Positions 2,137 through 62,419 are shown, counted from the stretch's first letter. The stretch is 64,000 nucleotides of DNA from Patescibacteria group bacterium (GCA_038078835.1 JBBTQI010000003.1:2196-66195), one strand, 5' to 3'. Notes: generated by a model from the letters alone, not told the origin. Translations and numbers: made by a program.

Positions 2137-3363
2137 CTACAAATTACCACGATGCTTTTCGGCGGCGATGATCCGCTTAATCGCGATAGCGTAGGCGGCA
2201 GTGCGAAGATCAATCTTGTTTTTGTGCTCTTTGGCACACGCATTAACCCGATTCCAGGAGCCAAGCATCATCTTCTTGAGCTTGGCCCGCAAATACTCCT
2301 CATCAAGAATATTGCCGGTGCGGTTCTGCGCCCATTCAAAGTAGGAAACAACCACACCGCCGGCATTGGCCAGAATATCCGGCACAACGGTAATGCCGTT
2401 GGAGAAGAGAACATCATCAGCATAAAGGTCGACCGGACCGTTAGCCAGCTCAATAATATTTTTAGCCTTGATTCGAGCCGCATTCTTTTCGGTAATCTGA
2501 TTTTCAAGAGCAGCTAGGACTAAAACGTCCACCGGCAATTCTAAGAGCTCTTCGTTGCTGATCTTGTCGGCATCGTGATAAGCGGCCACATTGCCCTGCT
2601 CATCCTTGATCTTCAGCAGGTTGGCCACATTTAATCCATTTTTATTATGGATCCCGCCCTTGCTGTCTGAGGCCGCCGCCACATTGTAGCCATCTTCCGA
2701 GATCATATGGGCAAAGTGAGCACCGGCATTGCCAAAACCCTGGATGGCAACCGTTATCTGCTCCTTATTCTTTCTGATTTTCTTAACTAACTCTTTAAAA
2801 ATAATATAGCCGCCCTTGGCGGTCGAGTCGGCTCGAAGAGCAATCCCGCCAAGCTCGACGGGCTTGCCGGTAATCATACCCGGCTCGTGATGGCCAACCT
2901 GCTTTTCGTATTCATCCAGCATCCAGGCCATAATTTGCGGATTGGTATAAACATCGGGGGCCGGCACGTCTTTATCCTGCCCGACATATTTAGAGAACGC
3001 ACGCATATAAGCGCGGCTAATCGCCTCAAGCTCTTTCTTATCCCTGCCCTTCGGATTAATCCTCACTCCGCCCTTGGCGCCGCCGTAAGGCAAACCGGCA
3101 AGCGAGTTTTTGAGGCTCATCCAAAAGGCCAGGGACTTGATCTCATCCTCGCACACCTCGGGGTGAAAACGAATCCCGCCCTTGCCCGGTCCGAGAGCAT
3201 TGTTGTGGATAATGCGCCAGGCCTGATAGCTCTGGCCATTGATCTTGAGTTCGGCTTTATTGATTTGGCGCGATTTGGCTAAATAGTCAATCTCGCTCTG
3301 GTTCAAACCAACGATTTGTCCCACCTGCTCCAGGCGCCTAATAATCGTTTCGAATGTCGACAT
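2137..3363 (-). CDS. gdhA: Glutamate dehydrogenase (Glu/Leu/Phe/Val dehydrogenase family)
   Basis: GGAKGGVRINPKG catalytic-lysine motif and GFGNAGAH NAD(P)-binding motif, 408 aa. Confidence 0.9.
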   Translation of the reverse strand: MSTFETIIRRLEQVGQIVGLNQSEIDYLAKSRQINKAELKINGQSYQAWRIIHNNALGPGKGGIRFHPEVCEDEIKSLAFWMSLKNSLAGLPYGGAKGGVRINPKGRDKKELEAISRAYMRAFSKYVGQDKDVPAPDVYTNPQIMAWMLDEYEKQVGHHEPGMITGKPVELGGIALRADSTAKGGYIIFKELVKKIRKNKEQITVAIQGFGNAGAHFAHMISEDGYNVAAASDSKGGIHNKNGLNVANLLKIKDEQGNVAAYHDADKISNEELLELPVDVLVLAALENQITEKNAARIKAKNIIELANGPVDLYADDVLFSNGITVVPDILANAGGVVVSYFEWAQNRTGNILDEEYLRAKLKKMMLGSWNRVNACAKEHKNKIDLRTAAYAIAIKRIIAAEKHRGNL

Positions 3364-11549: not shown

Positions 11550-13013
11550 TTAGCCCAACTCCCAGTTGGCGTCTACTTTAATCTTGCCCCAAGAAGAAAC
11601 ATTGTTTCGCAGAACGTGATAGTAGGCCGCCAGACCAATCATCGCCGCATTATCGCCGGTTAAAGCTATTGGCGGTACCAGAAAATCTACTTTCGACTTT
11701 TCACTTTCAACTTTCAACTTGCTTCGAAGGTGTTTGTTTGCAGCAACGCCGCCGGCCAAAACAACGGTTTTGGGGGTAAATTGTTCAACCGCTCTCATTG
11801 TTTTAGTTACCAGCACATCAACAACTGCATCCTCAAAGGCAGTGGCAATCTCCGCTTTATCGATATCATCAAGACCCTCACCCCTACCCTCTCCCAAAGG
11901 GCGAGGGAGTTTTAAGGAAATCCGACGCTTAACTTCCAGAAGAACAGCTGTCTTTAAACCGGAGAAAGAAAAATTAAAAGTGCCATTGTTAATAATCGGC
12001 CGAGGAAGAACTAATTTGCTTAAGGCTGGAGGCTTAAGGCCGACCTTCGACAAACTCAGGTCGCCCTGAGTGGAAATTGAATGGGCGGAGGCCACATCCT
12101 TCCCGCCTTCAGCCTTCGGCCTTGGGCCTTGGGCTGATTCGCCTTTAGGATCATTTCTAAATTGCTCCGCCAATTTAGAAATGATCGGTCCCCCGGGATA
12201 ACCAAGACTAAGCAACTTGGCCACCTTGTCAAAAGCCTCTCCCGCCGCGTCATCCAGGGTCTGGCCGAGAGTCTCATACTGATCGTGACCCTTCATCAGA
12301 ACAAGCGAAGTATGCCCGCCAGAAACCACTAAAGCCAAAATTGGAAATTTTGGCTCGTCCAAGGCCAAAGGCCCAAGGTCTAAGGTCTTTTCGTCTCGGC
12401 CTTCGACCTTCGACCTTCGACCTTCGACATTTACTCCGCTTAAAGCGGAGTAAATATGTCCTTCGATATGGTTGACGGGAATAATCGGCTTATCCAGCAC
12501 GTAAGCGATCGATTTGGCGGCGTTAAATCCAATCAAAAGAGACCCGATCAACCCCGGTCCCGCCGTTACCGCGATGTGGGTAATCTCATTTTTTAGATAA
12601 TCCTGACTTTCCTGAAAATTACTACCCTCACCCCAACCCTCTCCCTGAAAGGGAGAGGGAGTATTAAAGGTTCCATCGCCCCGTTTCACGGGGAGAGGGT
12701 TAGGGTGAGGGGTTATAATAGATCCGTTTCCTTTATTTTGCATTTTGCATTTTGCATTTTGATTTTTAGCCTGTAAGAGTGCTTGTACGATTACAGGCGT
12801 TATCGCTTCCATATGCGCCCGGCTGGCCACCTCCGGCACTACCCCGCCCGTCTTGGCATGGAGATCGATTTGAGAGCTCACCACATTCGACAAAATGACA
12901 GGCCGAAAGCCTGTCATCCCGGACTTGATCCGGGATCCATCTTTTCCTACCCCAATAACCGCCGCAGCGGTCTCATCACAAGACGACTCGATGGCAAGAA
13001 TTAGAGGGGACAT
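11550..13013 (-). CDS. tsaD: tRNA N6-adenosine threonylcarbamoyltransferase TsaD (Kae1/YgjD), strongly expanded by in-frame repeat insertions
   Basis: LILAIESSCDETAAAVI, HIEGHIYSA, and GGVAANKHLR. Start at the internal Met MSPLILAIESS (rc ATG at 13011-13013). About 487 aa versus a typical ~340 aa. It contains family-1 repeats (11875-11910, 12625-12712), family-2 repeats (12085-12135, 12352-12430) and a (cattttg)n microsatellite at 12738-12762. Confidence 0.85.
   Translation of the reverse strand: MSPLILAIESSCDETAAAVIGVGKDGSRIKSGMTGFRPVILSNVVSSQIDLHAKTGGVVPEVASRAHMEAITPVIVQALLQAKNQNAKCKMQNKGNGSIITPHPNPLPVKRGDGTFNTPSPFQGEGWGEGSNFQESQDYLKNEITHIAVTAGPGLIGSLLIGFNAAKSIAYVLDKPIIPVNHIEGHIYSALSGVNVEGRRSKVEGRDEKTLDLGPLALDEPKFPILALVVSGGHTSLVLMKGHDQYETLGQTLDDAAGEAFDKVAKLLSLGYPGGPIISKLAEQFRNDPKGESAQGPRPKAEGGKDVASAHSISTQGDLSLSKVGLKPPALSKLVLPRPIINNGTFNFSFSGLKTAVLLEVKRRISLKLPRPLGEGRGEGLDDIDKAEIATAFEDAVVDVLVTKTMRAVEQFTPKTVVLAGGVAANKHLRSKLKVESEKSKVDFLVPPIALTGDNAAMIGLAAYYHVLRNNVSSWGKIKVDANWELG
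12625..12712. repeat. REP-like palindromic element, family 1, composite nested palindrome inside tsaD
   Basis: ccctcaccccaaccctctccc-tgaaa-gggagaggg ... ggggagagggttagggtgaggg. The outer arms at 12625-12645 and 12692-12712 are reverse complements. Confidence 0.65.
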
Positions 13014-13032
13014 TAGAGGGGACGGTTCTCTT

Positions 13033-13683
13033 TTAGGCACAGTTTTTCGCTTTCTTTGATTTTCTGGCCACCTTTTCCTGTTCTCGGTATCTTTGATAAT
13101 TACTGCCCCAGATATTTTTACCATAAGTTTGCTCAATAATTTGGTCTACCACCAGTTTTTGATAGCTAATTTGTCTATCTTGTGCATCCTGTCCGATTGC
13201 CTCATAAAGAAAATCGGGGGTGATTAATAAATCTGTTTTACCTCGAACGTAATGGAGATAGCTTGAGTATTTGTAATCTTCCGGCCTTTCTACTAATCTC
13301 GCCCTGACCGGATTAAGTTCAATATACTTTCCGCACTGGATAAAGTAGGCGTCCTTACCGACCGCCTGACTTTTATAGCGATCTTGCCAAAAGTGGCCAA
13401 TCCAATCATAGGACTGCCGATAGTGTTGGAAATAGGCCAAATTTAACTTTTTCATAAAAGTCGAAAAGTCGAGAGCTTTCTTGGTTTGAATTAAAAAGTG
13501 AGTGTGGGTAGGCATCAAGCAATAATGATAAAGGTCAAAAGGATGTTCTGATTTATACCTGCCAATAAGTTCTAAAAAATACAAATAATCATCATCTGAC
13601 CTGAAAACCTTATTCCGGTTGTTGCCCCGGGTCATTATATGATAAAAACTCTGAGATAAAAGAAATCGTCGTGTTCTTGGCAT
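13033..13683 (-). CDS. REP-associated tyrosine transposase (RAYT, IS200/IS605 TnpA-like HUH enzyme)
   Basis: HUH motif CLMPTHTHFLIQ, plus WQDRYKS and YIELNPVRARLV with the catalytic Tyr region, 216 aa. A 12-bp direct repeat (cattagagggga x2) at 13001-13024 lies just downstream. Confidence 0.7.
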   Translation of the reverse strand: MPRTRRFLLSQSFYHIMTRGNNRNKVFRSDDDYLYFLELIGRYKSEHPFDLYHYCLMPTHTHFLIQTKKALDFSTFMKKLNLAYFQHYRQSYDWIGHFWQDRYKSQAVGKDAYFIQCGKYIELNPVRARLVERPEDYKYSSYLHYVRGKTDLLITPDFLYEAIGQDAQDRQISYQKLVVDQIIEQTYGKNIWGSNYQRYREQEKVARKSKKAKNCA

Positions 13684-13789
13684 AACGTAAGTTTACTAGA
13701 ATTCAGTAAAAAGCGAAATATCGAGATAAAAAGAGAACCGTCCCCTTAAGCTCTTAAGCTTATTAACAAAAATCCCTATAAAAATCAAA

Positions 13790-19261: not shown

Positions 19262-20170
19262 ATGATAACTATGCAAGAATTCTTTCAGTCTCTGGTAATC
19301 GGCGCCATCCAGGGCATCACCGAATTTCTGCCGATCTCCTCGTCGGGGCACCTGGTCTTGGTCCCTTATCTTTTTGGTTGGGACTATCAGGGTCTCTCAT
19401 TTGATGTCGCCCTTCATTTTGGCACCGCCCTTGCTGTTATTGCCTACTTCCGGCGGGACTGGATAAAGATCATCGCTAAAGGCCTAAGGCTGAAGGCTGA
19501 AGGCAATAGCAATTTGGCCTCCGGCCTTAGGCCTCCGGCCTTAGGCTTTTCCGCTTCCAGCCCTAGGCCTCCGGCCTTAGGCAAAAATTTGCTGTGGCAA
19601 ATTTTAATCGCTTCCATTCCGGCGGCGATTGCCGGCATCTTGATCAACGACTATGTTGAATCAACTCTCCACTCTCCTCTCTTGCTCGCCGCTAACCTGA
19701 TTATCTTTGGCTGGCTTCTCTGGTATGCCGACAAACGAGCTGCCTTCGGCCTTTGGCCTTCGGCCTTCGCCCATTCGATTTCCACTCAGGGCGATCTGAG
19801 TCTATCGAAGATCGGCCTTCGGCACGCCTTGTTTATTGGTCTGGCTCAATCTCTTGCCCTGGTCCCCGGCGTCTCCCGCTCCGGCATCACCATCACCGCC
19901 GCTCGCAGCCTCGGCCTGAATCGGGAAGCGGCAACCCGCTTCTCCTTTCTCCTCGGTACTCCGGCGATTGTCGGCGCCTTTCTCTATAAATTCAAGGATA
20001 TCGATATTGCCCTAATTAACCTTCCCTTTATTGTTGCCACACTGGCGGCAATGGTCTTTGGTTTTCTTGCGATCAAGTATTTGCTACAATATTTAAGAAA
20101 GAGCGATTTCTCCGTTTTTTTGTGGTATCGAGTCGCACTAGCCATAATCGTGCTCTTCGGAGGGAAATGA
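19262..20170 (+). CDS. uppP: Undecaprenyl-diphosphatase UppP/BacA, carrying in-frame repeat insertions
   Basis: N-terminus LVIGAIQGITEFLPISSSGHL, and a C-terminal GVSRSGITITAA motif. Family-2 repeat insertions at 19478-19582 and 19742-19772 encode LRLKAEGNSNLASGLRPPALG and FAHSISTQGDLSLSKIGL. Both peptides also occur in xerD and tsaD. Confidence 0.85.
   Translation: MITMQEFFQSLVIGAIQGITEFLPISSSGHLVLVPYLFGWDYQGLSFDVALHFGTALAVIAYFRRDWIKIIAKGLRLKAEGNSNLASGLRPPALGFSASSPRPPALGKNLLWQILIASIPAAIAGILINDYVESTLHSPLLLAANLIIFGWLLWYADKRAAFGLWPSAFAHSISTQGDLSLSKIGLRHALFIGLAQSLALVPGVSRSGITITAARSLGLNREAATRFSFLLGTPAIVGAFLYKFKDIDIALINLPFIVATLAAMVFGFLAIKYLLQYLRKSDFSVFLWYRVALAIIVLFGGK
19478..19582. repeat. GC-rich palindromic element, family 2, inside uppP
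   Basis: aggcctaaggctgaaggctgaaggc...ggcctccggccttaggcctccggccttaggc. Confidence 0.6.
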
Positions 20171-48793: not shown

Positions 48794-50182
48794 TTAACGA
48801 AGAAAAGTGTAAATTCTCTCTTTAATCATCAATATATCATCTTTGACTCGATCGTTTTTATTTAACTCGGATTCAATCTTGCGATAACCGTGAATGACTG
48901 TCGAGTGATCTTTCCCGCCCATAATACGGCCGATATCGGGAAAGGACAACCCGCCCTCGCTTTTGAGTAAAAACATTGCTATCTGCCGCGGCAAAACCAA
49001 CTCTTTTGTTCGGCGTTTTCCCAGGATATCATCTATCGGAACCTTGAAGTGGCGATGAATCTCCCGCATAATGAGATCGGGAGTGATTGTTTGGCGCCGC
49101 TCTTTAATCATCTCCCCCAGAATTTCATTGACGCAATCGGTATCAATCGGGACATTTTTAAGCTCGCATGTCGCGATAATCTTGGTTAGGACCCCTTCAA
49201 GCTCACGAATGGAGGAGTGGATATTTTCGGCGATAAAACGGATTACCTCGGGTTCGATGTGGACTCCGTGCTTGCGCGCCTTATGACGCAGGATAGCCTC
49301 TCGTGTTTCCAGGTCGGGCTGGCTGATGTCGGTCACCATTCCCCCCTCGAAGCGTGTTTGGAGCCTGATTTCAAGTCCTCTGATGGATTTGGGGTGGGTA
49401 TCGGCGGTTAAAACCACCTGTTTTTTGTTTTGGTGTAGGTGATTAAAGGTGTGAAAGAATTCATCCTGAGTGCTTTCTTTGCGGGAGAGGAACTGAATAT
49501 CGTCGATCAGAAGAAGGTCGACATTGCGGTACCGGTCTTTAAAGTCCTTTGCCCGGCCGTGCCCCGCCTCAACGGCGGTGATAAAATCATTAATGAAGGT
49601 TTCGCTTGAGATATACAAAACCTGTTTGCCGGGACTCTTCTCTAAGAAAGCGTGGCCGATTGCCTGAATAAGATGAGTTTTGCCTAATCCCGAGTTGCCG
49701 TAAATAAAGAGCGGATTGTACTGACTGCCGGGACGGCTGGCGACGGCAAGGGCGGCGGCGTGAGCAAGTTGATTTGAGGGACCGACAATAAAATCATTAA
49801 ATTTATAATCCTCGTTCAAATTGTTGCCGATGAGCGACTTTTGCCGGTTGGCATTGACGCGAGCCGGCTCAGAGTTATCCACAGGGCTGTGGATAACTCT
49901 GGATTTTTGAAGGATATTTTTAAACTCCGGCGGGGGTGAGGCGATCTTGAACTTGATGCCGACGACTGTTTCTGTCACCTGCTTTTGCAGGGCGTTTTGT
50001 ATCTCTTTTAAATACTTACGTTTCAGCCAGTTTTCAAAGAAGATATTCGGCGCCCCGATTGTAAAATAACCCTTTTTAAAATCAGCTAAAAAGGCGCCCC
50101 GAAACCAGGTTTGATAGTTGGCTGTTGAGAGCGAAACCTCTAACTCATTCAGAACATTGCGCCAAATTTGGACTAAATCCAT
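48794..50182 (-). CDS. dnaA: Chromosomal replication initiator DnaA
   Basis: AAA+ Walker A GNSGLGKTHL, LLIDDIQF, and a C-terminal DNA-binding domain (...HSTVIHGYRKIE). Start at MDLVQIW (50182). Confidence 0.95.
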   Translation of the reverse strand: MDLVQIWRNVLNELEVSLSTANYQTWFRGAFLADFKKGYFTIGAPNIFFENWLKRKYLKEIQNALQKQVTETVVGIKFKIASPPPEFKNILQKSRVIHSPVDNSEPARVNANRQKSLIGNNLNEDYKFNDFIVGPSNQLAHAAALAVASRPGSQYNPLFIYGNSGLGKTHLIQAIGHAFLEKSPGKQVLYISSETFINDFITAVEAGHGRAKDFKDRYRNVDLLLIDDIQFLSRKESTQDEFFHTFNHLHQNKKQVVLTADTHPKSIRGLEIRLQTRFEGGMVTDISQPDLETREAILRHKARKHGVHIEPEVIRFIAENIHSSIRELEGVLTKIIATCELKNVPIDTDCVNEILGEMIKERRQTITPDLIMREIHRHFKVPIDDILGKRRTKELVLPRQIAMFLLKSEGGLSFPDIGRIMGGKDHSTVIHGYRKIESELNKNDRVKDDILMIKERIYTFLR

Positions 50183-50401
50183 AGCTGGAAAATCCCTTAA
50201 AAAAATAGACAACTCAAATATAGCAAGTTATCCACAGGGTACGTCAATAGAGCGTTGGGCAAGGCATCCATCGTCGCTAAAGTGACTTCTCCTACAAAAT
50301 TACAAATTTTACAAATACTATGGTGAACAGGTTCGAATCAATTTGTAATATTTGTAGTTTCGAAAGATTTGTAATTTTGTAGGATATTTAGGTGTATTGT
50401 G

Positions 50402-55619: not shown

Positions 55620-55629
55620 TGCTTACATA

Positions 55630-55673
55630 ATCCACCTGGAAGGTGAATGCGCCCAAACACCTTCCAGGTGGAT
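55630..55673. terminator. Conserved hairpin CCACCTGGAAGGTG-N12-CACCTTCCAGGTGG, copy 1 (terminator-like)
   Basis: atccacctggaaggtg aatgcgcccaaa caccttccaggtggat, directly after the stop of the 54795-55619 gene. Confidence 0.5.
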
Positions 55674-55738
55674 TACTCGCTCGAACTATAACAAAAACCG
55701 CTTCGATCGCGAGCGGTTTTTGCTGTTATCACTAAGAT

Positions 55739-56056
55739 TTAATTAACGGCAGTATTGGCAGTGCCGGCAACGGCGTTGACGATGACGTAAGCCAGAACGA
55801 TGATGATGATGCCGATAATGGCGTTAACCACGCCCTGCTGGCCCTTCTTGGCGGCATCGGGGTTGCCGGCGGCGGTCAAGTAGAGAATGCCGGAGTAGAT
55901 CAGGTAGATAACGGCGATGGCGCCGGCAATCGGCAGAACCACGCTTGTAATAGCGCCGCTGATTAATGGAACAACTCCCTCCTCTCCGCCCTTGGCGGTG
56001 TCCAGGGTTATGTCACTCAAACCCTCATCAGCAAGGGCTCTTTGAACCAAATTCAT
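55739..56056 (-). CDS. Small VirB2/TrbC-like (T4SS pilin-like) two-helix membrane protein, paralogue 1
   Basis: ...VVLPIAGAIAVIYLIYSGILYLTAAGNPDAAKKGQQGVVNAIIGIIIIVLAYVIVNAV. Start at the internal Met MNLVQ preceded by GGAGGAG. Shares the core motif with the four other pilin-like copies. Confidence 0.5.
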   Translation of the reverse strand: MNLVQRALADEGLSDITLDTAKGGEEGVVPLISGAITSVVLPIAGAIAVIYLIYSGILYLTAAGNPDAAKKGQQGVVNAIIGIIIIVLAYVIVNAVAGTANTAVN

Positions 56057-56189
56057 CTCTCCTCCTTTTATTAGGTCTAAATGAAAAATATTGTGCCTGC
56101 GATCGACCCTCGCTCTATGCACACCGCAGGACATGCTTAATAGCTAACTTGCTTTCTAAATCCTACCACACCCCTCAAATCTTTTGCAA

Positions 56190-56513
56190 CTATAATTTTA
56201 ACAAAGTGCCGCGGACGGCCCGGACAATGGCGTAGGACAAAACGATGACGGCGATGCCGATGATGGCATTAACCACTCCTTGCTGGCCCTTTTTGGCGTT
56301 ATCGGGATTGCCGGCGGCGGTGATGTAGAGAATGCCGGAGTAGATGAGGTAGAGCACAGCCAGAGCGCTGGCGATCATTAAGAGAATGTTGACGATGCCG
56401 GTGATGAGGCCGGCAATATTGTCGGTGCCGGTGGCAAAGGCGGTGCCGCCGGAGAGATCGCTGACGGCGTCGCCGGCCGAGGTGGCGGCGCGGCTTGATT
56501 CAATTATCTTCAT
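56190..56513 (-). CDS. Small VirB2/TrbC-like pilin-like membrane protein, paralogue 2
   Basis: ...LLMIASALAVLYLIYSGILYITAAGNPDNAKKGQQGVVNAIIGIAVIVLSYAIVRAV, nearly identical in its core to paralogue 1 (tandem duplicate). Confidence 0.55.
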   Translation of the reverse strand: MKIIESSRAATSAGDAVSDLSGGTAFATGTDNIAGLITGIVNILLMIASALAVLYLIYSGILYITAAGNPDNAKKGQQGVVNAIIGIAVIVLSYAIVRAVRGTLLKL

Positions 56514-56538
56514 TTATCCTCCATGATAACTCACCGCC

Positions 56539-56586
56539 AACCCACCTGGAAGGTGTTTGGCCACACTCACCTTCCAGGTGGGTTGG
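56539..56586. terminator. Conserved hairpin CCACCTGGAAGGTG-N12-CACCTTCCAGGTGG, copy 2
   Basis: aacccacctggaaggtg tttggccacact caccttccaggtgggtt, between pilin-like genes 2 and 3 (downstream of the stop of gene 3 on the minus strand). Confidence 0.5.
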
Positions 56587-56590
56587 AATA

Positions 56591-56932
56591 TCACCCTAAA
56601 AATTTATTTGTTGTCAAGATTGCCACGATGGCGCGGGCGGCCAGGACAAGGATCAAACCCAGGATGGCCCAAGTCAGGGTTTTCTTGGCGTTCTCCGCCT
56701 CCGCCTCGTTTCCTTGCGATTTCACGTACAAAAAAGCGGCGTAAAGAATGTAGATAAAAGCGACCACGGCGGCGGCGTTAAGGGCCATAGTGATAATAAG
56801 CCCGACATAGCCGCCATTCTCACTATTATAAATATCACCAAGACCCTTCTTGGTGCCGTCAAAACCGCGCCCGTCCCAGATGCTCTCGGGTAAACTTGCG
56901 GCGTAAGTTTTTTGAATTAAGAAATCCATCAT
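56591..56932 (-). CDS. Small VirB2/TrbC-like pilin-like membrane protein, paralogue 3
   Basis: ...MALNAAAVVAFIYILYAAFLYVKSQGNEAEAENAKKTLTWAILGLILVLAARAIV. Confidence 0.5.
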   Translation of the reverse strand: MMDFLIQKTYAASLPESIWDGRGFDGTKKGLGDIYNSENGGYVGLIITMALNAAAVVAFIYILYAAFLYVKSQGNEAEAENAKKTLTWAILGLILVLAARAIVAILTTNKFLG

Positions 56933-56952
56933 TTAGAAAAATTTTACTCCCC

Positions 56953-59900
56953 CTACCCCTTCTTCACAAGAGGGATGATGACGCTGGTGGTGAGGCGGAC
57001 GAGGGCGTAGGCCAAAATTAAGACAATGACGCCGGTGACGGCGTAAGTTAAGACCTTTTTCGCTTTGTCGGATTTGCCGGTGTCGCCGCCGGAGGTGATG
57101 TACATAATGCCGCCGGAGATAAGAGCGAGGAGGGAGAGGGTCATTACCAGCCAGTAGAGAATCTCGACGATTCGCACTGCCAGCTCGTAAATACTGTTAA
57201 TCATACTGCCGCCGATCAGCTCATTCGGTTTCAGACCGCCGCCCCCGCCTTGGTCAGGCGGACAAATCGGCTTGCTGCCGTCGGCTGGGTCAGTACAGCC
57301 CTTATTGCTGGCGTTGGGGTCGAGTGTGATCGCCCGCTCGGCCTTGCCGGTGCATCTTGTAACCGTGTCATCGCTTAAATCGGCGATCTCGTTAAGGGTG
57401 TATCCCTCTCCGGAATCGTTGTCGGCATCAATCGCCTCCTCACTATCATCCGATGTTAGCCCCAAGGTTTCACCAGATCTCAGATCGGCGATGATTTTAG
57501 CGCGGGAGGCCTGCGCGCCTCGAGCGATCTGCTTAATCAGCTGGCTTAAGATAATATCGCTATCATCACTGTTGTAACTCTCCTCTTTCAATCCAGTATC
57601 CCCTTTGTCGGTATTAGTGTCATTAGATTGGCCGTCAGTTTGATCATTCACTTTGGTGCTATTGGTATTTGGCTGATCGACCGGTGTTTCGGTCTCGCCT
57701 GTCGGACTCTCCTCCAGACCTGTTGTCGAACCCGCCTCGATTAATCCCCGCTCAATCTCACCAAACGCACTCCGGCAATTCTCCAGCTGATCGATATCAA
57801 TGCCGCGATAGGTTTTAACCCGGATATAGTGAAGGCCGGCCTCACTGTCGCTGTTCGGCCAATCGGTGTAGACAAACTCCTCGGCCTCGCCCTTGTTATT
57901 TTTGTTAAAAGTACAGGCTTTTTTAAGACTCCACTCCTCTTCTTTAAGGTTTTTAAGATCATCGGCGCTGCCTACCTTGGGTGAGATATAAAGCTTTAAG
58001 ACATCACTGACACTCAAGTCATCGGCACGGCGTTTCTCCAGGGGGGGTCTCACTTTGATTTTAGTCATCGCCGCCGCCTGTTTATCGGGATCGGTCGCCT
58101 TTTTAATCTGGCTCGGCGCGTTGATAGAGATGGAACAGCCAAAACAGCCGTTGACCTGGTTATCGTCATTTTCGCCATTCGGTCCGAAAATTTTGAAGTC
58201 TTTTGTCGCTTCACTGATTATTGTTCCACTGTTAGTAATAGTAATCCTAAATTGGTGATTTCCGATTCCAAGAGGACCGCCCTTGTCATTGCCACCGGAA
58301 ACTTGACCGGAGAGCGCCGATGTATGGAATGCGGCATTGAGATCCCAAAGAAACTCACCCTCATAACCGATTGTACCGGCAATAAATTTGGTATCCGCAA
58401 GATAGTTTGGACTATCCTTGGAGATAATTTCTAAAACCGCCGAAAAACCGCCGCCCTTAACTTGACTTAAAATTTTATCATTGGGGTTTACTTTATAAGG
58501 AATGGAGACACTGTTGCCGTAATTGCGGAAGATTTTATCGAAGTTGGAATTTTTATCATCGCGGCCGTCAATATACTCTTTGGTCAAGCGGAAGGAGGCG
58601 GGGGCGGTGATTTTGATCTCGTCGTTGCCCCACTCCTCCAGGGCGTAAGACATATAGCTGTCGTAAATCCGCTGGATGATCTCTTTGTCGTCACTGCTTT
58701 TGGCTTTTCCCAGAGCCTCCTTAAGCAGAGCGGCCGCCTTGGAGTTGGCGCGGGCGTTTTCGTACTTGCCGCCCTCATACCGGCCGGGAGAAGAGATAGA
58801 GCAGATTTGTACTTGTTTATCGAGATTAACCAAGACTTGAACATTGGGATCCTCGCCCTCATTCATGCCCTTGCAGGTGCCAGAGGGCCCGCCGTAGATA
58901 TCGAGCCATTTATAGCTGCCCTGGTCGCGCCAAGCGTAAAAGGTCGGGTTTTTAATCGCGTCTTTAATGGTTTGGATCGACTGATGAGCGTCAACTTTGT
59001 CGCTCAGGTTGTCGCCGGCATTATCCTCAATAAATTTATAGATCTCCTGAATGTAGCCCCAGGTCTTCTCGTCGTTCTTCTGGTCAATGACAATAACCTC
59101 ATCCCGCTTGATCTGACGGGATAGAGTAAGTTCTTCTCCTTCGACCAAATTGAAGGGATAGAAGTAAACTCTCTCGGTTAATTCGGAGATCGCCTTGGCT
59201 TTACTCCGACCGTCTTTGAGCTTGCCGGAGATGCCGCAGAGAACAAAGTTTTCGCCGTTGACGCCGTAAGGCTTGTCAAAACTGCCGCAGTTTTTGAGAG
59301 CGAGATAGGAATTGATATAGGTGCGGAGGTTGTTAATGGAGGCAAGGGCTTTACTGGTATCGCCGCCGGATTCATTATCCTCGGAGGCATCCCGAACCGC
59401 TTCGTACATCTTTAAAATCTTACCGGCAAGAGCGGTGGTGAGCGGCGTTGTTGCCTCCGAAATGTAATAGTTGGCCGCCATTTCCCGGGGGATGACGGCA
59501 TTATCACCCTGGAAGAAGGGCCAGGCTTGAATCGGCATGCCGTTAAAGTGGCCGACGTTTTTAATGTTATTGATATCTTCCTCGGTGAGGCCGTATTTTG
59601 AATATTTGTAAACCAGAAACGAATCGATTGTTTTGTAAGTAACGACCTCGTAAACCCCGTTGGACTCCTGCTTGGCCTTGAGCGCCTCGCCGATGGTGTT
59701 AGACCACCCCTCGGCCTGCTGGTAATCAGTCTGGGCTTCCTTCTCGCCATCAGCTTTATTGCCGCCGCGCTGTTTGGCGCTGGTCATAATCGCCTTGTAG
59801 ATCTTTTGAAGATTTTTCCAGTTGGGACGGGTTAAGGTGTTAACCTCAATCTTGCTGGCGAGATAGGGGTTGGCATTAAGTTTTAAGGTATCGGCACTGC

Positions 59901-60465
59901 CGTCATACTCCGCCTGGTAGATATTAAAGTTGAGAGTTTGCCGCTCCTCCGCTTTTTTGACGTGCTTGCTTAAGTCGTAGAGGGTAAAACCGTTGTACGA
60001 GCTGTAGCTGGCCTGACTTTTGCTTAAGCGCCGGCTAACCTCCTGCATAACGCGGCGGGCATGGCCCTCATTCACCAGGTTTCTCTCGCGGCGGGCGGCG
60101 CTCTGGATATCGCTATAAGTGCCGTAAACCGCCTTCCAGCTGTCATAGAGACGCTCAACCTTCTTGCTCTCGCTATCGTAAATGTCGTCGATGGCACTTG
60201 GCGCCAGGACAATTGGCAGTTCCAGCTGTTTGTTGCTTCTAATAAATTTGGCGGTGGCGTCGTTAGCCTTAATTTTGTCATAATCCTCTTTTGAGAGACG
60301 GTAATAGACAAAATTATCGCCGGCACGGTCATAGGTTTCGTTGGGGTTAATATCGGCGCCGACCTGCAGGCGGGAATAAGCGAGGATTCCGCCGATCATC
60401 AAAAAGAAGGGCAGTGCCAGCAGCCCGCTAAACTTCCAAAATTTTCGGCTCAAACCGAGTTTCAT
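56953..60465 (-). CDS. Large (~1170 aa) membrane-anchored protein whose C-terminal ~70 aa form a pilin-like domain (pilin fusion, candidate tip/adhesin subunit)
   Basis: C-terminus ...LVMTLSLLALISGGIMYITSGGDTGKSDKAKKVLTYAVTGVIVLILAYALV matches the pilin-like core. N-terminal TM helix LLALPFFLMIGGILAY. Start moved to MKLGLS (rc ATG at 60463-60465), because the upstream in-frame extension is encoded by hairpin copy 3. The middle of the protein has no recognisable domain. Confidence 0.55.
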   Translation of the reverse strand: MKLGLSRKFWKFSGLLALPFFLMIGGILAYSRLQVGADINPNETYDRAGDNFVYYRLSKEDYDKIKANDATAKFIRSNKQLELPIVLAPSAIDDIYDSESKKVERLYDSWKAVYGTYSDIQSAARRERNLVNEGHARRVMQEVSRRLSKSQASYSSYNGFTLYDLSKHVKKAEERQTLNFNIYQAEYDGSADTLKLNANPYLASKIEVNTLTRPNWKNLQKIYKAIMTSAKQRGGNKADGEKEAQTDYQQAEGWSNTIGEALKAKQESNGVYEVVTYKTIDSFLVYKYSKYGLTEEDINNIKNVGHFNGMPIQAWPFFQGDNAVIPREMAANYYISEATTPLTTALAGKILKMYEAVRDASEDNESGGDTSKALASINNLRTYINSYLALKNCGSFDKPYGVNGENFVLCGISGKLKDGRSKAKAISELTERVYFYPFNLVEGEELTLSRQIKRDEVIVIDQKNDEKTWGYIQEIYKFIEDNAGDNLSDKVDAHQSIQTIKDAIKNPTFYAWRDQGSYKWLDIYGGPSGTCKGMNEGEDPNVQVLVNLDKQVQICSISSPGRYEGGKYENARANSKAAALLKEALGKAKSSDDKEIIQRIYDSYMSYALEEWGNDEIKITAPASFRLTKEYIDGRDDKNSNFDKIFRNYGNSVSIPYKVNPNDKILSQVKGGGFSAVLEIISKDSPNYLADTKFIAGTIGYEGEFLWDLNAAFHTSALSGQVSGGNDKGGPLGIGNHQFRITITNSGTIISEATKDFKIFGPNGENDDNQVNGCFGCSISINAPSQIKKATDPDKQAAAMTKIKVRPPLEKRRADDLSVSDVLKLYISPKVGSADDLKNLKEEEWSLKKACTFNKNNKGEAEEFVYTDWPNSDSEAGLHYIRVKTYRGIDIDQLENCRSAFGEIERGLIEAGSTTGLEESPTGETETPVDQPNTNSTKVNDQTDGQSNDTNTDKGDTGLKEESYNSDDSDIILSQLIKQIARGAQASRAKIIADLRSGETLGLTSDDSEEAIDADNDSGEGYTLNEIADLSDDTVTRCTGKAERAITLDPNASNKGCTDPADGSKPICPPDQGGGGGLKPNELIGGSMINSIYELAVRIVEILYWLVMTLSLLALISGGIMYITSGGDTGKSDKAKKVLTYAVTGVIVLILAYALVRLTTSVIIPLVKKG

Positions 60466-60518
60466 TGCCAAAAAAGCGATGCTAATGACGAATTTACATG
60501 CGAATGACCAGAATGCTT

Positions 60519-60562
60519 GCCCACCTGGAAGGTGAATGTGCTCAAACACCTTCCAGGTGGGC
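60519..60562. terminator. Conserved hairpin CCACCTGGAAGGTG-N12-CACCTTCCAGGTGG, copy 3
   Basis: gcccacctggaaggtg aatgtgctcaaa caccttccaggtgggc, downstream of the stop (60669) of the secreted paralogue gene. Confidence 0.5.
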
Positions 60563-60668
60563 AACACAGGTGGGCAACAGAAGACTCCCTGGTTGGCGAT
60601 TAACGGTTCGTTTCGTTTATGATTTGTCCGGATGTGCCTATCGGATCATCTTTTATTTTTCACAGGAT

Positions 60669-62039
60669 CTACTCCGCCTTTACTTCCGGCCAGTCGATCT
60701 TGACGGTTTTCTTGTGCGTCTTGCCGTCGCTGGTCTTGAACTTGAAGGTGTACTCGTTAATCTGGCGGACAATGCTTTCCGGGTAAACCTTTCTGATTTT
60801 GTTATTGTTGCGAATTATCTTAATAATATCGCTTGGGACCGTGACCTGTCCGCTAAAAGAAAACGATACATTGGCATATGTCTGTTGGGCAGAGTAGGCG
60901 CCCTTGCCTTCGTTAAAGTTTAAAGTGTGATCATCGGTAATATTTTTTTTGCCGGCGTCGGTGTTGTACTGCCAATTTTGGCCGTCGGTGGTTTCGCAGG
61001 CCGGACAACCGATGATATCTTGCCGCCAGAAGAGATCATATTTTACCTCAAGCGTGGCTTCGGTAATGTCGGCGATGGCGGCCGGATTAACTTTGGCGGC
61101 GTAAAGATACTGGCCGGCGGTTCTGTTTTTGACGGCATCCTGGTCGGTAATATCCTCAACCATAAGATCAGGTGCGACAAAGCTTACTTTAAGGTCGGCT
61201 GATTTTCGGGTATAGTTCTTGAGTTTGACCTTGATCTCTTTGTTTTTTATCTCTTTATCGGAGGTAAAGACCCACTGCGTCTCGCCCGAACTGGTATCAG
61301 CCTCAACCGTCGTGCCCTCCTTGCCCTCCATCCTGACGTTTTGGGGCAGTTCGATGATAACCGGCTGATTGGCGAGGGCGGAATCATCGGCTTTGTAAAA
61401 TCGCGCCGTTACTCTGATGCCGTGTTCCACTTTGCCGGTGTTGTAGCCGGTGGGAGTGCTGTCGTTGTCAAGCGGCGAGGATGTTTCAAATTTGATTTGG
61501 GCATTTTTGAGAATATCCTGTTCACCTGCCGTGGCATCGGGCGTCTCGACGAAGACGGTCTTTATAGTGAATTTGCGGTAAACTTTCGGCTGACCGAGGA
61601 CATTTTCGCCGATCTTAAACCAGAAATAAACCTTCTTGACGCCTTTTTTCTCGGAGGTGATGCACTGATCAAGGGTGCCGTCTCCGGTTGTCGATTCAAA
61701 GGTGCCGGTTTGGCCATTAATAGTGATGTTGGAGCTGTTCTTGGGCGCTTTCATCCAGAGTGTCTGGTCAAAGAGCGGCGACTCTTCTTCGTCCTCAAAA
61801 TCTATGATCGGATTGGCGCAGTCTTTACCGTCGGCTATCGCCTGCAGGGTGGATGACTCTGTGTCCAGTGTGACCCTGGCTGTTTTTAGAAAGGCTTTAA
61901 GGTTGGGATCGGCGTCGGCCGAGGCGGTGTTGTAATTCATTACTCCGACCACGGCCAATAATATCGCTGCCGTGCCGATCAGCAGACGAACTCTGGTCCG
62001 GGCGGAGAATCCGCGTCGCGATCGTCTCCTTTTTGCCAT
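60669..62039 (-). CDS. Secreted hypothetical protein, paralogue of 54795-55619 (Arg-rich N-terminus plus TM/signal)
   Basis: MAKRRRSRRGFSARTRVRLLIGTAAILLAVVGV, start after GAGGAGGA (rc of tcctcctc at 62042-62049). Beta-rich body with no recognisable domain. Confidence 0.5.
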   Translation of the reverse strand: MAKRRRSRRGFSARTRVRLLIGTAAILLAVVGVMNYNTASADADPNLKAFLKTARVTLDTESSTLQAIADGKDCANPIIDFEDEEESPLFDQTLWMKAPKNSSNITINGQTGTFESTTGDGTLDQCITSEKKGVKKVYFWFKIGENVLGQPKVYRKFTIKTVFVETPDATAGEQDILKNAQIKFETSSPLDNDSTPTGYNTGKVEHGIRVTARFYKADDSALANQPVIIELPQNVRMEGKEGTTVEADTSSGETQWVFTSDKEIKNKEIKVKLKNYTRKSADLKVSFVAPDLMVEDITDQDAVKNRTAGQYLYAAKVNPAAIADITEATLEVKYDLFWRQDIIGCPACETTDGQNWQYNTDAGKKNITDDHTLNFNEGKGAYSAQQTYANVSFSFSGQVTVPSDIIKIIRNNNKIRKVYPESIVRQINEYTFKFKTSDGKTHKKTVKIDWPEVKAE

Positions 62040-62062
62040 ATTCCTCCTCTTTTTATAGTGAT

Positions 62063-62419
62063 TTAACAATAAAACAATTTGATAATCGTCGAAGTTGTCT
62101 TTGTCGGATCGGGGAGGGCGAGGAAGCTGAGGATCAGTTTAACCAGCCAGAGCGTGGCTAAGCCGAGGATGGCTCCCAGAAAAATCTCTTTGGCCTCGCC
62201 GATGGCGGTCTGGTTGCCGGCGGAGGTGATGTAGCGGTAGCCGGCATAAATAATCATCAAAACGGCCAGGGCGGAACCGAGCTTTAAGGCAAAGCCATAC
62301 ATATCGGCAATATAGGTGGCGTAAGTGTAGCTGGTGCGGCTGCTGCCGGGAATGCCGACACCGATACCGACACCCTCGGCGGCATACACCTTTGTTAAGT
62401 TTATAAAGTTATTTACCAT
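62063..62419 (-). CDS. Small VirB2/TrbC-like pilin-like membrane protein, paralogue 5
   Basis: ...GSALAVLMIIYAGYRYITSAGNQTAIGEAKEIFLGAILGLATLWLVKLIL. Confidence 0.5.
   Translation of the reverse strand: MVNNFINLTKVYAAEGVGIGVGIPGSSRTSYTYATYIADMYGFALKLGSALAVLMIIYAGYRYITSAGNQTAIGEAKEIFLGAILGLATLWLVKLILSFLALPDPTKTTSTIIKLFYC

Follow-up and report, generated by a model that had tools for sequence, protein, structure and literature searches.

The 64,000-nt stretch of DNA analysed here (GCA_038078835.1, JBBTQI010000003.1:2196-66195; hereafter, the window) comes from an ultra-small bacterium of the Patescibacteria (Candidate Phyla Radiation, CPR), on a contig obtained from the groundwater of Hainich well H43, and is near dnaA, rnpA and yidC. 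A pilin operon on its minus strand, together with the border of that operon, carries three near-identical hairpins, which are the subject of this report. In the direction of transcription, the operon consists of a solute-binding protein gene, a T4SS_pilin gene, a 466-aa gene, hairpin copy 3, a 1170-aa gene with a C-terminal pilin domain, pilin gene 3, copy 2, pilin gene 2 and pilin gene 1. Past pilin gene 1 come a bidirectional terminator, copy 1, the end of a convergent 274-aa gene and a gene for a PilB-like ATPase. All three copies are intergenic. The features are as follows:

55628-55675: hairpin copy 1, arms 55628-55645 and 55658-55675 (18 bp), loop AATGCGCCCAAA, plus orientation
56537-56586: hairpin copy 2, arms 56537-56555 and 56568-56586 (19 bp), plus-strand loop TTTGGCCACACT, which is the reverse complement of AGTGTGGCCAAA
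60517-60564: hairpin copy 3, arms 60517-60534 and 60547-60564 (18 bp), loop AATGTGCTCAAA, plus orientation
60555-60580, plus strand: 13-nt tandem direct repeat, AGGTGGGCAACAC at 60555-60567 and AGGTGGGCAACAG at 60568-60580, read from the sequence
55691-55727: canonical bidirectional intrinsic terminator, 13-bp stem with an A-tract and a T-tract on both sides, AACAAAAACCGCT...AGCGGTTTTTGCTGTT, minimum free energy (MFE) -18.4 kcal/mol

The hairpins were first noticed in a sequence-only reading, and their existence is not in doubt. Within the window there are six instances of the 14-mer CCACCTGGAAGGTG, which make up both arms of the three hairpins (55632-55645/55658-55671, 56542-56555/56568-56581 and 60521-60534/60547-60560). 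By chance 0.39 occurrences would be expected, and six were reached in 0 of 100 shuffles. No further copies of the 14-mer were found in the window, even at one or two mismatches. The same reading held that the stems are identical over 14 bp and that the copies differ only in the loop. The 14-bp core is indeed the same in all three, but an inverted-repeat scan gave longer stems of 18, 19 and 18 bp, each 100% complementary with 12 nt between the arms, and the outer 4-5 bp are also specific to each copy: TAAT/ATTA in copy 1, CCAAC/GTTGG in copy 2 and TTGC/GCAA in copy 3. These outer pairs are thus copy-specific and yet complementary, with a combined chance probability that we ourselves estimate at ~1e-8. 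As for the loops, when oriented they all fit AATG-N4-CAAA, with one further substitution in copy 2 (AGTG for AATG), and copy 2 runs the opposite way to copies 1 and 3.

The arms are mini-palindromes in their own right, each reading CACCT-GGA-AGGTG, such that the 13/14-nt unit (C)CACCT-GGA-AGGTG makes a mini-hairpin with a 5-bp stem and a 3-nt loop. The full hairpin is an inverted doublet of this unit, joined by the AATG-N4-CAAA spacer. This is the arrangement by which a REPIN is defined, i.e., palindromic REP (repetitive extragenic palindromic) units in inverted orientation that form one hairpin across a short spacer, here with a 12-nt spacer and perfect stems of 18-19 bp. The tandem repeat at the border of copy 3 duplicates the end of the right arm together with its flank, and is likely a scar of slippage or template switching. 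Each arm of the hairpin family also contains a CCWGG site (CCTGG/CCAGG).

Relative to the genes, copy 1 begins 9 nt past the stop of the 54795-55619 gene, between the two convergent genes. Copy 2 is found between pilin gene 3 (56591-56932, minus strand) and pilin gene 2 (56190-56513, minus strand), 5 nt past the stop of the former and 24 nt ahead of the ATG of the latter. Copy 3 separates the 466-aa gene (60669-62069, minus strand) from the 1170-aa pilin-domain gene (56953-60465, minus strand), 104 nt past the stop of the one and 52 nt ahead of the likely ATG (60465) of the other. A position just past a stop codon, as initially described for every copy, is therefore accurate for copies 1 and 2 but loose for copy 3. 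Because the arms, as read from the sequence, hold no stop codon in any frame, open reading frames (ORFs) run through them, and the peptides MLPTWKVFEHIHLPGG in ORF 56953-60567 and MITHRQPTWKVFGHTHLPGG in ORF 56523-56744 are, as suspected, artefacts of this kind.

It had also been proposed that the element doubles as a bidirectional terminator. Transcribed from either strand, the hairpins are predicted to be very stable, their folding energies lying between -33 and -43 kcal/mol and their z-scores between -5.8 and -8.4. The MFE is -32.6 kcal/mol for copy 1 on the plus strand (z -7.8) and -40.2 on the minus strand (z -8.4), -41.5 and -42.6 for copy 2, and -43.6 and -41.8 for copy 3. However, no T-tract follows any copy on either strand. 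A terminator scan that accepts loops of 3-8 nt only picked up none of the three, whose loops are 12 nt long. The canonical terminator at 55691-55727 serves both pilin gene 1 and the convergent 54795-55619 gene and lies 15 nt from copy 1, which thus sits beyond the pilin operon's own terminator, while copies 2 and 3 are inside the operon, immediately upstream of the following cistron. The sequence therefore lends no support to a terminator function, and we discarded the rho-independent terminator as an identity for these hairpins. A search of the window against Rfam at the gathering score returned a tRNA only, with no family for the hairpins, and at E<=1 it returned two sub-threshold matches at chance level, neither of them relevant.

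The exact 14-bp hairpin pattern gave no matches in a collection of genome contigs, and a relaxed inner-stem pattern was needed for searching public metagenome and genome collections. About two thirds of the relaxed-pattern matches were dropped as unrelated chance palindromes in which the outer CAC/GTG was not conserved. This left 41 distinct exact doublets of the form CACCTGGAAGGTG-N7-23-CACCTTCCAGGTG, in Daviesbacteria, Gottesmanbacteria, several Hainich groundwater contigs, other Patescibacteria, and Ktedonobacteria and other Chloroflexota, the stems in the last two reaching ~21 bp. For example, the 769,731-bp Daviesbacteria contig JACPDA010000004.1 yielded three exact doublets and two compensated variants. 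Compensated variants that keep the palindrome include CACCTCGAAGGTG/CACCTTCGAGGTG, CACCTGGAAGATG/CATCTTCCAGGTG, CACCTCCGAGATG/CACCTCGGAGGTG and CGCC...GGCG forms. In an alignment of six copies with the window-type loop, 8 of the 21 pairs were altered on both sides, a degree of compensatory change matched in 0 of 500 shuffles. The pentamers CACCT/AGGTG and the loop shoulders AATG/CAAA were invariant across these six.

A clue to the nature of the family comes from the genes that its unit flanks. On two Hainich contigs, an IS200-like Y1_Tnp gene is directly beside family hairpins. These Y1_Tnp genes belong to a clade from Patescibacteria that we call the L063 clade, and at each of the five independent loci examined the 13-nt unit or a compensated variant was found within ~15-60 nt of both gene ends:

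L120-122 (Daviesbacteria): exact CACCTGGAAGGTG on each side of the Y1 gene
L119: compensated variants CACCCTCCAGGTG and CACCTGGAGGGTG flanking the Y1 gene
L123-124 (Microgenomates): gtaCACCTGAGAGGTGtac, also given as CACCTGAGAGGTG, on each side of the Y1 gene
L063/L125: a full doublet and CACCTTAAAGGTG upstream of the Y1 gene, CACCTTAAAGGTG downstream
L032: full doublets on each side of the Y1 gene

Contig L125 holds the flanked Y1 gene and an extra doublet together. The flanked gene P0064 probably shares the Daviesbacteria contig JACPDA010000004.1 with the doublets found there, the longest contig recorded for this gene being equally 769,731 bp long. Immediately before the units flanking the RAYT-like genes stands TTGTG or TGTA. 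A conserved segment, cacagrtaTTGACAcctt, separates the upstream unit from the start codon in L119, L120 and L123 (slightly diverged in L063), and from its sequence looks like the promoter of the Y1 gene. The L063-clade proteins match Y1_Tnp ('Transposase IS200 like') in Pfam. Their only NCBIfam match is REP_Tyr_transpos (NF047646), at 50-54 bits, whereas the IS200 transposase model NF033573 did not match the clade at all. The best relative of solved structure is E. coli TnpA_REP (PDB 4er8, E=6.6e-4). By sequence, these proteins appear most similar to the REP-associated tyrosine transposases (RAYTs). Each gene keeps to one conserved context per organism over many assemblies (P0064 on 14 contigs; P0090 with constant neighbours), and >7800 homologues are present in metagenomes. 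The suggestion of a dispersed miniature element is thus supported: the family is spread over many genomes of Patescibacteria and Chloroflexota, and Y1 transposase genes of one clade are flanked by its 13-nt unit.

In the other Patescibacteria, most family copies lie deep within long ORFs, usually in the frame HLEGE-x-HLPGE. Since only doublets with exact inner stems could be retrieved by the search, it is partly a matter of ascertainment that stems inside genes appear perfectly conserved. The insertion in gatB appears as a 7-aa gap against T. maritima GatB and that in nadE as an 8-aa gap against PDB entry 2e18; both are common to several diverged genomes. The in-frame doublets are listed below:

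L013, L015, L025, L027, L036, L066, L002, L008, L021, L051: gatB and nadE insertions
L076, 1195-2292: GAPDH
L088, 387-1856: DinB-family polymerase
L112, 6263-7021: RsmI-like methylase
L113, 4989-6839: GT2 glycosyltransferase

Such repeats yield false N-terminal extensions and spurious ORFs and add 12-17 aa segments to conserved proteins, with effects on annotation and on protein alignments. In the window itself, tsaD (11550-13136, minus strand) encodes ~490-530 aa instead of ~340, and its product aligns to E. coli TsaD in four blocks with inserts of ~58, 25, 48 and 15 aa. One insert, 12625-12711, is a palindrome with 21-bp arms, CCCTCACCCCAACCCTCTCCC...GGGAGAGGGTTAGGGTGAGGG, which reads ...PHPNPLP...GEGWGEG in translation. 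Here, a further family of palindromic repeats lies in-frame in an essential gene.

The closest relatives found with a syntenic pilin operon, L117 and L118, have PilB proteins 73% and 70% identical to that of the window, and neither operon has the hairpin motif at up to 3 mismatches. A different short repeat (..attcttcgag..gcgagaagtc.. / aatcttcgaacgaagcgagaacttcgc) was seen in their intergenic spacers, at 2750-3004 and 3814-3900 in L117 and at 12048-12130 in L118. Other small repeat families may occupy the equivalent spacer positions in related genomes. Elsewhere in the window, there are a perfect palindrome with DnaA-box-like TTATCCACA (CAGAGTTATCCACAG/CTGTGGATAACTCTG) at 49870-49901 and AT-rich inverted repeats at 50279-50378, which the positions of mapped genes put between dnaA and rnpA. 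This is probably oriC, which would place the hairpins 5-10 kb from the origin. An imperfect inverted repeat with 27-nt arms made of AAGGC/GCCTT-type units (AAAGGCCTAAGGCTGAAGGCTGAAGGC...) is also present at 19478-19550.

Taking these results together, we consider it probable that the three hairpins are REPIN-like non-autonomous mobile elements. By analogy with the RAYT and IS200 enzymes, a Y1 enzyme would recognise the unit folded in single-stranded DNA and then cut and rejoin the strand. Cutting and rejoining would spread doublets to new sites, which here would have been three of the spacers between genes in and beside the pilin operon. If the elements inserted into the centre of short palindromes that were already there, or if quasi-palindrome template switching followed their insertion, this could account for the outer 4-5 bp and for the 13-nt duplication; a single-stranded intermediate that underwent fold-back priming might be a further option. 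Once transcribed at the 3' ends of cistrons, the hairpins would probably act as E. coli REPs do, i.e., as barriers to 3' exonucleases or as modulators of read-through.

Several observations weigh against this interpretation. The copy number appears low, with 3 in 64 kb that share a 5-kb stretch and only a few per contig in Daviesbacteria, while classical REPs and REPINs are present in tens to hundreds of copies per genome. Classical REPs also have one of two conserved tetranucleotides, GTAG or CGTC, where the hairpin begins at its foot (PMC3733652, PMC6006769); neither is present at the feet of the three copies, where the flanks are TAAT, CAAC and TTGC. The L063 clade, at 50-54 bits, scores under the curated RayT cut-off of 80, and no Y1 gene of that clade is present within the 64-kb window. 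Because relatives at 70-73% PilB identity are too diverged in their intergenic DNA, despite the shared gene order, no empty site could be aligned at the base level in L117 or L118. Furthermore, both transposition and the effects on mRNA are entirely what we infer, by analogy.

The window does have a RayT gene of its own (13033-13683, minus strand), which scores 81.1 bits against NF047646, above the cut-off of 80. This too counts against our interpretation, since the gene belongs to a clade other than the L063 clade and is flanked by inverted copies of GGGGACGGTTCTC (13018-13030, plus strand, and 13733-13745, minus strand). The same motif, and not the CACCT unit, flanks the RayT genes of this clade in 4 of 4 loci (the window, L128, L129 and L130). 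We rejected this gene as the source of the enzyme for the hairpins: given the different flanking motif carried by its clade, its product is probably not the one that acts on them. Together with GGGGACGGTTCTC, it forms another RAYT-type system, distinct from the first, within this genome. In L130 (8452-10801), a related Hainich contig, the RayT gene of this clade comes directly after a restriction-modification pair of the MvaI/BcnI type.

Another possible explanation is that the hairpins are primarily RNA elements selected within the pilin operon, i.e., intercistronic stabilisers, sites of RNase III-type processing or factor-dependent attenuators that set the stoichiometry of the pilins, with any mobile ancestry being secondary. 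All three copies fall in a 5-kb part of one gene cluster, each follows a cistron and leaves the next Shine-Dalgarno sequence free, and the stems are very stable, maintained by compensatory change and, at 18-19 bp, of a length that would suffice for double-strand-specific RNases. A role as 3'UTR regulators has been reported for E. coli REPs (10.64898/2026.03.23.713779). However, an element selected for this role would have to be reconciled with its absence from the syntenic operons of relatives, with the inversion of copy 2 relative to copy 3 on one transcript, with the position of copy 1 beyond the operon's terminator, with the lack of any Rfam match and with the residence of most family members in unrelated loci or within coding sequences. 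We therefore regard it as unlikely. A still narrower function, with the palindrome as the binding site of a regulator or recombinase of the pilin cluster or as a DNA-uptake signal tied to the pilus machinery, is highly improbable. The clustering of the hairpins in the pilus gene region beside the PilB-like ATPase gene and the perfect conservation between copies are what such a site would lead one to expect, but the pilin clusters of the relatives have no such motif, and other family members are in gatB, nadE, GAPDH, dinB and similar genes, unrelated contexts that include housekeeping genes. For an uptake signal, the density of 3 per 64 kb, with none elsewhere in the window at 1-2 mismatches, is far too low. 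The protein-binding or recombination site of the sequence-only reading is accordingly unlikely to be one dedicated to the pilin cluster, and operator and uptake-sequence readings are largely refuted by density and distribution. For the window, this removes the idea of a pilin-specific regulatory site.

It could also be that the flanked Y1 gene is an ordinary autonomous insertion sequence of the IS200/IS605 type and that the doublets are its deletion derivatives, similar to MITEs (miniature transposable elements with inverted repeats) or palindrome-associated transposable elements (PATEs), and not the REPINs of a domesticated single-copy RAYT. The Pfam assignment, the score under the RayT cut-off, the low number of doublets and the >7800 metagenomic homologues would all fit. 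We nevertheless find this quite unlikely: each gene has a single conserved context over many assemblies, the same unit is present on both sides where distinct left and right ends would be expected, the RayT model matches and NF033573 does not, and the doublet loops have no remnant of the gene-proximal flanks. Finally, a sequencing-adaptor or assembly artefact could be rejected because the element recurs in independent projects (JGI, ENA, NCBI, Logan), where its place in the genes is unchanged although loops and flanks have diverged.

A broader proposal, which we put forward as doubtful at this stage, is that Patescibacteria and some Chloroflexota harbour an undescribed REPIN-RAYT-type system built on the 13-nt unit, whose doublets colonise housekeeping genes in-frame, persist across species with intact stems and are integrated into the host. 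If this is true, persistence within genes would imply that the palindrome is not merely tolerated: either selection acting on DNA or RNA would maintain it, or it would be neutralised, for instance by translation through it, bypass or removal. The copies of the pilin operon would then be one face of a host-integrated element. As a feature of the window, the hairpins are ordinary in kind; what makes them moderately interesting is their use as a lead to a palindromic element that would be CPR-wide and would colonise coding sequences.

Among known systems, rho-independent terminators share with the hairpins a GC-rich stem downstream of stop codons, but differ from them in the T-tract; a 12-nt loop, an 18-19 bp stem and an identical sequence at unrelated sites are also unlike a terminator. 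Rickettsia palindromic elements (RPEs), reportedly described by Ogata and co-workers in Science in 2000, are said to be palindromic repeats found in-frame in the protein-coding genes of a reduced-genome bacterium, where they are apparently tolerated. RPEs are 100-150 bp long, and we know of no transposase linked to them. The family members outside the window resemble RPEs in being in-frame in genes and stop-free in the frames used. Unlike RPEs (reviewed in PMC10969869), the present element is ~40-50 bp and tied to a clade of Y1 genes, and its copies in the window are intergenic. With the IS200/IS605 elements and their MITE derivatives, the PATEs, it shares a Y1 HUH transposase, sub-terminal hairpins in single-stranded DNA and short non-autonomous derivatives. 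Here, however, no multi-copy autonomous element was seen, the same unit is on both flanks, there is no tnpB gene, and the IS200 equivalog model is without a match to the L063 clade.

The closest parallel is provided by the REPIN-RAYT systems, known for the most part from Proteobacteria and viewed as 'replicators within genomes' that are long-lived and pass on by vertical inheritance. The described examples include the REPs and BIMEs (bacterial interspersed mosaic elements) of E. coli with TnpA_REP and the REPINs of Pseudomonas (PMC3116915, PMC5581495, PMC3479197, PMC2817692). A search of the accessible literature library found no paper that ties RAYT or REPIN to Patescibacteria or CPR, and the co-mentions of 'rayt' and 'Patescibacteria' were unrelated microbiome papers. 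A Y1 gene flanked by the unit, together with doublets, is the architecture described for such systems (PMC3116915, PMC5581495). The likeness extends to a short palindromic unit that occurs as inverted doublets folding into one long hairpin, to a Y1 HUH transposase gene that is flanked by the same unit in the related genomes and apparently has a single context per genome, to the location of the window copies mostly after genes and to stems that evolve by compensatory change. In contrast, the present unit is only 13 nt, its apparent copy number is low, the enzyme clade falls below the curated RayT threshold, and the hosts are Patescibacteria and Chloroflexota, not Proteobacteria. The window copies share the extragenic location of classical REPs, whereas many other family members are intragenic and in-frame. 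If Patescibacteria, with their tiny genomes, have a compact version of the REPIN-RAYT system, the phenomenon would reach into a lineage of a very different kind, and such palindromes would be shown to live within essential coding sequences.

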